Below, piece by piece: positions 63,355 to 63,912 of a DNA stretch of 64,000 nucleotides. Within the stretch, counting starts at the first letter, position 1. Every line of letters starts with the position of its first letter. The notes below the pieces were generated by a model. That model saw only the letters and a list, made by a program, of their open reading frames with translations, did no database searches and was not told the DNA's origin. The position numbers and the translations under genes are program-made. Origin of the DNA: Escherichia phage adrianh; the sequence record MN850614.1. One strand, 5' to 3'.

Positions 63355-63912
63355 ATGAGATATTTGAAGTATGCTTCATGGATTTTCTTAGCTTTACTAG
63401 ACCCAATTGCAGCAACCATAGCAGTTATCTTAGCACCTTTCGTAGTTCCATTCTACAGTGAGAAGAAAGGACATCTACCTTTTGGATTCAGATGGATGGA
63501 GACCTATGACAACCCGATTGATGGTGATAAAGGCCACGTTGAGAGATGGGCTAATATTAGATGGATTGGTAAACTAGGTGTCTACATGCAAAGAGTTGGA
63601 TGGCTCTGGAGAAACAAAGCTTATAACTTCTCTTACCATGTATTAGGAAGAGATGTAAAAGATGTTACTAAGTGGAAAGGTAATATCAACGTAAGTTCTA
63701 ACCCTGAAGATAATCAGACTGGTTATCTCCTAATGTGGAACAGGAATGCTTGGGGATTATTCGCTTTTATCCCATCAATTAAAATCTTTGGTAAACAATT
63801 TTACTGGAGAATTTATATTGGATGGAAACTAAAAAGTGTTGTCCCAGAAGAAAGAGCATTCTCAAGGGAAAGAGTTATGTTGGCATTCTTTATTCATCCA
63901 CTGAGAAAGTAA
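63355..63912 (+). CDS. Trp-rich membrane protein encoded inside the tRNA cluster
   Basis: 185 aa; RBS AAGAGG; N-terminal hydrophobic helix; many Trp/Arg residues. Confidence 0.5.
   Translation: MRYLKYASWIFLALLDPIAATIAVILAPFVVPFYSEKKGHLPFGFRWMETYDNPIDGDKGHVERWANIRWIGKLGVYMQRVGWLWRNKAYNFSYHVLGRDVKDVTKWKGNINVSSNPEDNQTGYLLMWNRNAWGLFAFIPSIKIFGKQFYWRIYIGWKLKSVVPEERAFSRERVMLAFFIHPLRK

Follow-up and report, generated by a model that had tools for sequence, protein, structure and literature searches.

The gene and its family

The DNA analysed here, referred to as the window, is a 64,000-nucleotide stretch of Escherichia phage adrianh (MN850614.1), and our subject is an open reading frame (ORF) at 63355-63912 on the plus strand, which has an ATG start and a TAA stop, encodes 185 amino acids and belongs to the family catalogued as DUF7338 in Pfam and as phrog_2143 in PHROGs. 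It lies between two tRNA genes of the same strand, a tRNA-Leu(CAA) gene directly 5' (63259-63336) that ends 18 nt before the ATG, and a tRNA-Gln(TTG) gene (63921-63996) that begins 8 nt past the stop codon. A Shine-Dalgarno sequence, AAGAGG (63342-63347, plus strand), is located 7 nt 5' of the ATG and 6 nt past the 3' CCA of tRNA-Leu, and the AAGAGG of the orthologues in phages Mushroom and Meda is annotated as a ribosome-binding site. The preliminary description of this DNA had reported an ORF with a good ribosome-binding site between two tRNAs, and its coordinates, its AAGAGG and both flanking tRNAs are borne out. Phage records that match bases 63100-64000 at 90-99% identity number 254 and are nearly all Felixounaviruses of Escherichia, Salmonella, Shigella and Citrobacter, and the window genome is thus that of a Felixounavirus, a Felix O1-like myovirus.

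The ORF is a real protein-coding gene under purifying selection and not a chance reading frame, as judged by full-length matches to Pfam and PHROG profiles, by the integrity of its orthologues, by its substitution pattern and by the 580 phage records in which tblastn finds DUF7338 homologues. The Pfam DUF7338 model (PF24027) matches residues 1-184 of 185 with E=4.5e-61 (206.1 bits, where the curated cut-off is 27), and phrog_2143 matches residues 1-185 with E=7e-79. All 25 of the Felixounavirus orthologues examined are intact at 558 nt and none is frameshifted, so that the absence or disruption in close relatives that would have spoken against the gene is not seen among them; the median ratio of non-synonymous to synonymous substitution rates (dN/dS) is 0.066, with a median dS of 0.26, over 268 pairs of Felixounavirus orthologue sequences. 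The window protein is 92-97% identical to Felixounavirus orthologues, equal in length and with the same single transmembrane domain (TMD) and conserved motifs, and we note no material difference.

Orthologues include Felix O1 ORF48, Mushroom gp87 (annotated as 'holin') and Bas63 gene 153 ('holin*'), and JS10 EpJS10_0132, STP4-a gp123 and Miro gp83 are further members of DUF7338/phrog_2143. A profile search of 1.84 billion cluster representatives returned 841 family clusters, and copies in the Ounavirinae and the Straboviridae are about 55-60% identical. A stringent pattern search of 185,579 bacterial species genomes found six loci, one of which is on a 178-kb contig, the size of a T4-like phage; the others are mostly Betaproteobacterial and are probably prophages. 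Pfam, PHROGs, over 200 Felixounavirus genomes and some 580 phage records already catalogue the gene, which is thus no discovery at the sequence level; a search of the accessible literature found no paper that names DUF7338. One metagenomic protein, P0034 (172 aa), combines a Gp53-like_C tail-fibre domain (PF21882) with the N-terminal half of DUF7338; we regard it as probably a recombinant or chimeric gene call, because at locus L107 a Gp53-like tail-fibre gene (721-2874) is situated two genes upstream of the DUF7338 gene.

Predicted topology and structure

The preliminary description had noted a hydrophobic N-terminal helix and a Trp/Arg-rich body, and both are present. Hydropathy, alignment and structural model agree on a single N-terminal transmembrane helix, WIFLALLDPIAATIAVILAPFVVPF, with an invariant Pro28, at codons 9-33 (63379-63453, plus strand); this is the sole hydrophobic segment of the protein (hydropathy 2.1-2.2). 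Codons 34-185 (63454-63909, plus strand) encode a basic, Trp-rich alpha/beta domain, predicted from alignment, charge and model to be periplasmic, which is rich in Lys as well as Trp and Arg (11 Trp, 27 Lys plus Arg, and an isoelectric point (pI) of 10.0 for residues 34-185). The features that mark membership of DUF7338, the motifs T-x-D-N and W-L-W-R-N, the single N-terminal TMD and a domain of about 150 aa, are all found here; the longer motifs are W-M-E-T-Y-D-N-P-I-D-G-D at residues 47-58, Y-x-Q-R-V-x-W-L-W-R-N-K-A-Y-N at 77-91 and G-W-K-L-K at 156-160. Residues P28, T50, D52, G57, W65, Y77, V81, W83, W85, R86, N87, Y90, G109, G123 and W157 are invariant in an alignment of 31 sequences. We make no claim for an enzymic function, since D52 is the only invariant acidic residue and the fold has no match, and the lack of any Cys means that there is no lipobox.

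This architecture is a property of the whole family. Each of 169 members has a single TMD beginning near residue 10, and in 90% of them the N-terminal flank of the helix is more positive than the C-terminal flank (median +2 versus 0), from which an N-in/C-out topology is predicted; the medians for the C-terminal domain are a pI of 9.4 and 10 Trp. The AlphaFold2 model built from the 31-sequence alignment is confident (pLDDT 91.2, pTM 0.83) and consists of a long transmembrane helix, a helical sub-domain (residues 43-96) and a five-stranded antiparallel sheet (106-184). The structure search that the preliminary description proposed matched the model to no solved structure, and no fold relative outside DUF7338 was found in PDB or BFVD. 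We describe the product as a predicted type-II (N-in, C-out) inner-membrane protein of a phage-specific family, whose domain would face the periplasm. A role as a spanin was considered and rejected, as the domain is globular alpha/beta rather than a coiled coil and the phage has separate inner- and outer-membrane spanins.

Genomic contexts of DUF7338 genes

We surveyed the neighbourhoods of family members in 80 IMG/VR loci, several GenBank phages, the six bacterial-genome loci and metagenomic contigs, leaving L064, L065 and L080 out of the counts as ORF mis-calls and re-reading L075 by hand. Two settings recur: tRNA arrays, in large lytic phages of several unrelated lineages, and the junctions between tail-fibre and lysis genes. 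Co-oriented tRNAs are located within about 1 kb of the gene in Felixounaviruses, in Escherichia phage Av-05, in Karamvirus-like phages, in a Cronobacter S13-like phage, in Pseudomonas phage Roomu-2 and in the uncultured phage groups L067/L068/L073 and L093, and in Dhaka-, Gelderland- and Slopekvirus-like phages the gene is just 3' of tRNAs; in three lineages its ATG lies only 17-28 nt past a tRNA 3' end. No tRNA lies within 6 kb in about half of the loci sampled, and there tail-fibre genes typically precede the gene and lysis genes adjoin it.

The lysis cassettes concerned are varied. In L063/L075 the order is tail fibre, tail protein, DUF7338, a one-TMD protein with a charged helical tail, and an endolysin of phrog_7 with a hydrophobic N-terminal segment; in L069 and L086 DUF7338 is followed by a holin (phrog_3427) and an endolysin (phrog_315); in L076/L081/L082 a two-TMD protein precedes DUF7338 and an amidase-type endolysin (phrog_5867), and L078 has the same upstream pair but with an endolysin of phrog_435. 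In L107/L108 the start and stop codons overlap or abut through a cassette of Mu Gp48, the Gp53-like tail fibre, a 193-aa ORF, DUF7338, a 96-aa ORF, a GH108 endolysin, two small ORFs and Rz (PF03245), and a similar order can be read from sequence features in the Betaproteobacterial Amantichitinum genome (L102). In STP4-a an endolysin gene is located about 700 nt downstream of DUF7338. Outside such cassettes, Moabite has the gene upstream of a tailspike gene.

In the T4-like Aeromonas phage avDM12 a long tail-fibre gene is followed by DUF7338, a T4-type lysozyme, an Rz-like spanin and then asiA, so that DUF7338 occupies the position held in T4 by holin gene t. No T homologue better than E=0.24 was found by tblastn with the T4 and JS10 T proteins against the whole 231-kb genome, although the T4 T query does detect T5-type holins at 28-30% identity. 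The 25 annotated tRNA genes of avDM12 lie at 163-173 kb, about 110 kb from the DUF7338 gene. The genome of avDM12-TAAL (OP380604.1) carries an annotated rIII gene despite having no T-type holin by tblastn.

Late-promoter boxes precede the gene in nine of 27 T4-like loci, TATAAATA at -34 in Dhakavirus-like phages and CATAAATA at -28 in Karamvirus-like phages, and this suggests that the gene may be expressed late in those lineages. In such loci a terminator hairpin ends the upstream unit and the late-promoter box comes right after it. Rho-independent terminator hairpins are found about 20-45 nt from the DUF7338 start codon in T4-like phages (L003 4930-5000, L048 5930-6000, L004 4960-5000), and in Slopekvirus-like phages the ribosome-binding site directly follows the hairpin. 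As in the known case of T4 gene e, such a hairpin may control whether transcripts that read through it are translated. PHROG scans of the neighbours in L083-L092, L066/L070/L071, L057-59 and L074 gave mostly no annotation.

Expression and dispensability of orthologues

Expression of the gene, a point on which the preliminary description had asked to be judged, is already documented for Felix O1, in which ORF48 (NC_005282, 28262-28819) lies between tRNA-Arg and tRNA-Gln: transcripts were obtained by reverse-transcription PCR for all 102 ORFs tested (Whichard et al. 2010, PMC3185647), ORF48 among them (Table 3 of that paper). The ORF48 transcript is maximal at 5 min post infection, which is early, and the major capsid gene ORF58 is listed in the same 5-min column (PMC3185647); because a capsid gene is also listed as early, we regard transcription as solid and the timing as weak and noisy.

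The Bas63 orthologue, gene 153, lies between tRNA-Leu 152 and tRNA-Gln 154 and was included in a pooled knock-out screen, PhageMaP (preprint, 10.1101/2024.10.10.617714), of which we draw on the main text and on individual fitness tables; the asterisk in its name 'holin*' denotes manual assignment after BLASTp. Knock-out fitness values for gene 153 in these tables are +0.89, +0.84 and +1.85 in strain S17, +0.81, +0.78 and +0.75 in a second laboratory strain, and +0.57, +0.46 and +0.60 in one table of the defence data set, as compared with -0.86, -0.53 and -0.77 for the endolysin gene 123 in the second laboratory strain and -0.35 to -0.48 in S17 for gene 29, another 'holin*'. On these values gene 153 is dispensable under the conditions of the screen. 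The screen is only moderately sensitive to lysis defects; the spanin knock-outs are also mostly positive in both laboratory strains, and trans-complementation is possible in pooled culture.

A possible accessory role at the cell envelope

The reading that we favour, albeit tentatively, is that the protein is a non-essential envelope component of the late envelope and lysis programme, where it would assist or regulate the holin-endolysin-spanin machinery and not be the essential holin, since it is dispensable and coexists with other holins. The N-terminal helix would anchor the protein in the inner membrane with the basic Trp-rich domain facing the periplasm, and through that domain the protein would act on the membrane itself or on some component that many Gram-negative hosts share. 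We infer this link to lysis, as we do the topology and the release of the mRNA by tRNA processing discussed below. The strongest functional lead is that the gene recurs in lysis cassettes, which span at least seven architectures and four families of endolysin, together with the late-promoter boxes and the replacement of T at its position in avDM12. P2 LysA, P1 LydB and PBSX XhlA offer a functional analogy: these membrane proteins of holin-endolysin cassettes, non-essential or auxiliary, tune lysis rather than execute it. The analogy is one of function only, no homology being expected and their topologies and sizes being unlike those of DUF7338 proteins.

Several observations weigh against this reading. 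No lysis gene adjoins the ORF in the window or in its Felix O1 relatives, and in Mushroom the endolysin gene is about 8 kb and the spanin genes about 22 kb from it; the array is fed by sigma70-like promoters, and the published ORF48 transcript maximum is early. In L083-L092 DUF7338 is inside a baseplate/tail-fibre operon with no lysis gene nearby, in L067/L072/L073 it belongs to a replication-type module (in L067 and L073 the gene follows a tRNA), and in L057-59 and KpLz-2_45 it stands alone on its strand. Moreover, unrelated accessory genes are classically found where tail-fibre genes meet lysis genes, so that adjacency is suggestive and does not amount to proof. Finally, if the protein is a regulator, its working with at least four families of endolysin and several types of holin means that it could not be a holin-specific antiholin of the T4 RI kind.

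A broader proposition, that DUF7338 represents a widespread and so far unrecognized class of phage lysis proteins, anchored in the inner membrane, facing the periplasm and new in fold, which are either alternative class-III-like holins or general regulators of lysis timing, seems to us rather doubtful. If it is true, DUF7338 has been recruited into at least seven architectures of holin/endolysin/spanin cassette, apparently replacing T in some T4-like phages, and large lytic phages park a lysis protein in their tRNA arrays, from which tRNA processing would excise its mRNA. A confidently folded, predicted periplasmic domain that has no structural relatives and, in many unrelated phages, recurs beside lysis and tail-fibre genes is a reasonable target in the search for new mechanisms of lysis control or exclusion.

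Alternative functions

Superinfection exclusion or envelope protection, in which the periplasmic domain of the membrane-anchored protein would block the entry of DNA from other phages or their attack on the cell wall, much as T4 Imm and Sp or HK97 gp15 do, is unlikely. In its favour, the gene is dispensable in single-phage laboratory culture (Bas63, in the PhageMaP tables used here), its Felix O1 transcript is early, and sigma70-like promoters feed the array. Its contexts are heterogeneous and accessory-like, including the lone-strand loci and the units of terminator, promoter and gene, and in tRNA-less phages it is consistently near tail-fibre and receptor-binding genes, as are exclusion genes such as T5 llp or cor. 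Copies from unrelated phages with enterobacterial hosts in common show high identity, which suggests horizontal transfer. The protein is, however, without homology to known exclusion proteins and without a PADLOC match, the late-promoter boxes of Dhaka- and Karamvirus-like phages are unsuited to an early role, and the overlapping or abutting codons of L107/L108 bind the gene into lysis operons. HK97 gp15, T4 Imm and Sp and T5 Llp are likewise small, dispensable envelope proteins, horizontally mobile and often with their genes next to those for tail or receptor-binding proteins, but they are unrelated to DUF7338, and whereas exclusion proteins of this kind are as a rule confined to a single receptor or entry route, DUF7338 proteins have about 60% identity across phages with different receptors.

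That the product itself serves as the holin, if only in Felixouna- and Chrysonviruses, is distinctly improbable. Such a holin would be of class III type with one TMD and an N-in/C-out topology, and would accumulate in the inner membrane and form holes, as T4 gpt does, through which soluble endolysin is released. Mushroom and several other GenBank records annotate the protein as a holin, a label that stems from the Mushroom genome announcement, where it was predicted from a class III topology (PMC4392139). The label is a topology-based guess that is unverified and conflicts with the knock-out data and with the occurrence of canonical holins in phages that carry DUF7338. The class III plan of one TMD, an N-in/C-out orientation and a large periplasmic domain is indeed what is predicted here, from 169 homologues, hydropathy and the model, and T4 holin T too combines one N-terminal TMD, with an N-in/C-out topology predicted, and some 150 aa of periplasmic domain. 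Phages of the Felix O1 type lack a holin-endolysin cassette, the published work on Felix O1 and UAB_Phi87 states explicitly that no holin has been identified (PMC3185647; PMC4837284), and no T homologue is detectable in them. The holin reading draws further on avDM12, where DUF7338 fills the slot of T4 t between the tail fibre and asiA beside lysozyme and spanin genes, and on the T4-like late-promoter boxes found in some genera.

Several lines of evidence nevertheless argue otherwise. A relationship to T4 holin T and the gene t family was rejected on both sequence (hhalign probability 0.1%) and fold, no Pfam holin family matches the ORF protein at E<=10, and the periplasmic domain of T has a pI of 6.5 and one Trp, as opposed to a pI of 10 and 10 Trp in the ORF domain. 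The T4-like phage JS10 encodes a canonical t at the gp38-t-asiA position as well as a DUF7338 gene beside its tRNAs. Adjacency to an endolysin gene points both ways, being absent from the window and its Felix O1 relatives but present in at least seven other architectures; several of these have another holin or holin-like ORF: the separate phrog_3427 holin of L069/L086, the two-TMD protein of L082 and the 96-aa ORF in the L107 cassette. Whereas loss of a holin is expected to block or severely delay lysis, the Bas63 knock-out of gene 153 scores positive in the PhageMaP tables and those of the endolysin gene and gene 29 negative. The early Felix O1 transcript also fits poorly, and since holins diverge fast the identity between Ounavirinae and Straboviridae copies is unusually high for one. 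The ORF product thus falls outside the T family, and a role as sole essential holin is unlikely.

Mushroom gp56, which corresponds to Bas63 gene 29 (L012 36487-36858, minus strand), is a 123-aa protein of phrog_4038 that has one N-terminal TMD and a tail resembling a coiled coil; its gene comes just behind the tail-fibre genes, and in the PhageMaP values its knock-out is about as negative as that of the endolysin gene. This product is an alternative candidate for the Felix O1 holin, or for a spanin-like factor. One-TMD proteins with charged helical tails, like the gene 29 product, adjoin DUF7338 in L063, L075, L082 and avDM12. Felix O1 is a classic phage of Salmonella typing and biocontrol that has lacked an assigned holin since 2010, and the ORF product and the phrog_4038 family make up the two concrete candidates for it.

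A tRNA-related role, either in tRNA repair or protection or in countering PrrC, RloC or tRNA-targeting defences of the retron or PARIS type, is highly improbable, and while the preliminary description was correct in placing a protein-coding gene inside the tRNA cluster, its suggestion of tRNA repair or of defence against anticodon nucleases fails because the product is predicted to be periplasmic, has no RNA-acting domain such as those of T4 Pnk and Rnl1/2 and has many homologues unconnected to tRNAs. The proximity of co-oriented tRNAs in several unrelated lineages, among them several genera of the Straboviridae, and the close spacing of tRNA 3' end and ATG in three lineages can be cited in its favour. 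Yet the protein is membrane-anchored and lacks any nucleotide-binding, kinase, ligase or nuclease signature (NCBIfam and PADLOC models gave no match, and Pfam no nucleic-acid-enzyme match), half or so of the sampled loci have no tRNA nearby, and tRNA-less phages keep homologues in tail-fibre/lysis modules. Moreover, avDM12 has a tRNA array yet carries DUF7338 in its lysis locus, the slot within arrays is not conserved, and the main text of the PhageMaP preprint reports no defence-related phenotype for Bas63 gene 153 (10.1101/2024.10.10.617714). The polynucleotide kinase gene, for its part, lies elsewhere: a polynucleotide kinase resembling T4 PseT and an endoribonuclease resembling RegB (L013 19700-20921, Mushroom gp126-127) are encoded beside the spanin genes and far from the array, and these are plausibly the RNA-repair and RNA-processing genes of the phage. 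The lysis-linked, holin, exclusion and tRNA readings together leave a remaining share of the probability to functions not considered here.

The tRNA array and neighbouring features

ARAGORN identifies 18 tRNAs in 60374-63996, all on the strand of the ORF; beyond the ORF, the complete genomes of relatives have five further tRNAs, another embedded ORF (244 aa) and then the terminase gene. The gap between tRNA-Leu and the ATG holds only the Shine-Dalgarno sequence and has no room for a promoter; as the ORF has no promoter of its own, it is therefore co-transcribed with the tRNAs. Three sigma70-like promoters on the plus strand, all with a perfect TTGACA -35 box, face the array: one at 60227-60255, one at 60318-60347 (TTGACA-18-TAAAGT with TG) just 5' of the first array tRNA, and one at 61781-61809 (TTGACA-17-TATACT, 11/12) that is the nearest 5' of the ORF and corresponds to the Felix O1 'P45' (PMC3185647). 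These suggest transcription of the array by host polymerase, which is to say early, and the promoter at 61781-61809 is a candidate for the start of a tRNA/ORF co-transcript. RNase P cleavage at tRNA-Gln together with 3' processing of tRNA-Leu would then free an mRNA with very short untranslated ends.

The slot that the gene occupies within arrays varies, with at least three in Felixounaviruses (Leu|Gln here, Arg|Gln in Felix O1 and Asp|Ser in L035), and with Gly|Gln in Av-05, Phe|Met in Karamvirus-like relatives of T4 and Gln|Trp in Roomu-2, whose homologue is 23% identical. A tRNA-gene cassette moving as one unit was rejected as an explanation, since the flanking tRNAs differ between lineages. 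The Felix O1 array contains three HNH homing-endonuclease genes (ORF44, ORF45 and ORF47) and ORF46 (L094 4031-6727), and the window has gaps or small unannotated ORFs (61104-61531, 61766-62334 and 62425-62680) at these sites, by which we regard the array as a variable insertion hotspot. The position of the gene is better explained by a plastic array, in view of the varying slot, the HNH genes, the other small embedded ORFs and the strong transcription; the array would serve both as an insertion hotspot for accessory genes and as a transcription unit and expression platform for the ORF.

Some other features of this region deserve mention. The 244-aa array gene, just past the window end, follows tRNA-Phe (L001 5265-5999) and corresponds to Mushroom gp86 and Felix O1 ORF49 (phrog_2114); it has weak similarity to a 'GTP-binding domain' family, and ORF49 is also listed as maximal at 5 min. 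The first of the three promoters overlaps a hairpin with a 12-bp stem (60219-60255, plus strand) that resembles the Felix O1 bidirectional terminator t42/t43. An additional tRNA at 62014-62092 (plus strand), missed by ARAGORN, is detected by Rfam at 31.7 bits, above the gathering score, and the Bas63 gene order has a tRNA-Arg at about this position. Just upstream of it, at 61705-62012 (plus strand), there are weak, sub-threshold matches to transfer-messenger RNA (tmRNA), and Felix O1 encodes a tmRNA according to the Mushroom paper (PMC4392139). Directly 5' of the array, a 471-aa ORF at 58792-60207 (plus strand) is the orthologue of Felix O1 ORF42 ('RNA-binding protein') and of Bas63 gp130 ('DUF2828'); the authors of the PhageMaP preprint liken gp130 to Ro60, show that it counters the Ppl defence system and speculate that some of the array 'tRNAs' are Y RNAs (10.1101/2024.10.10.617714).

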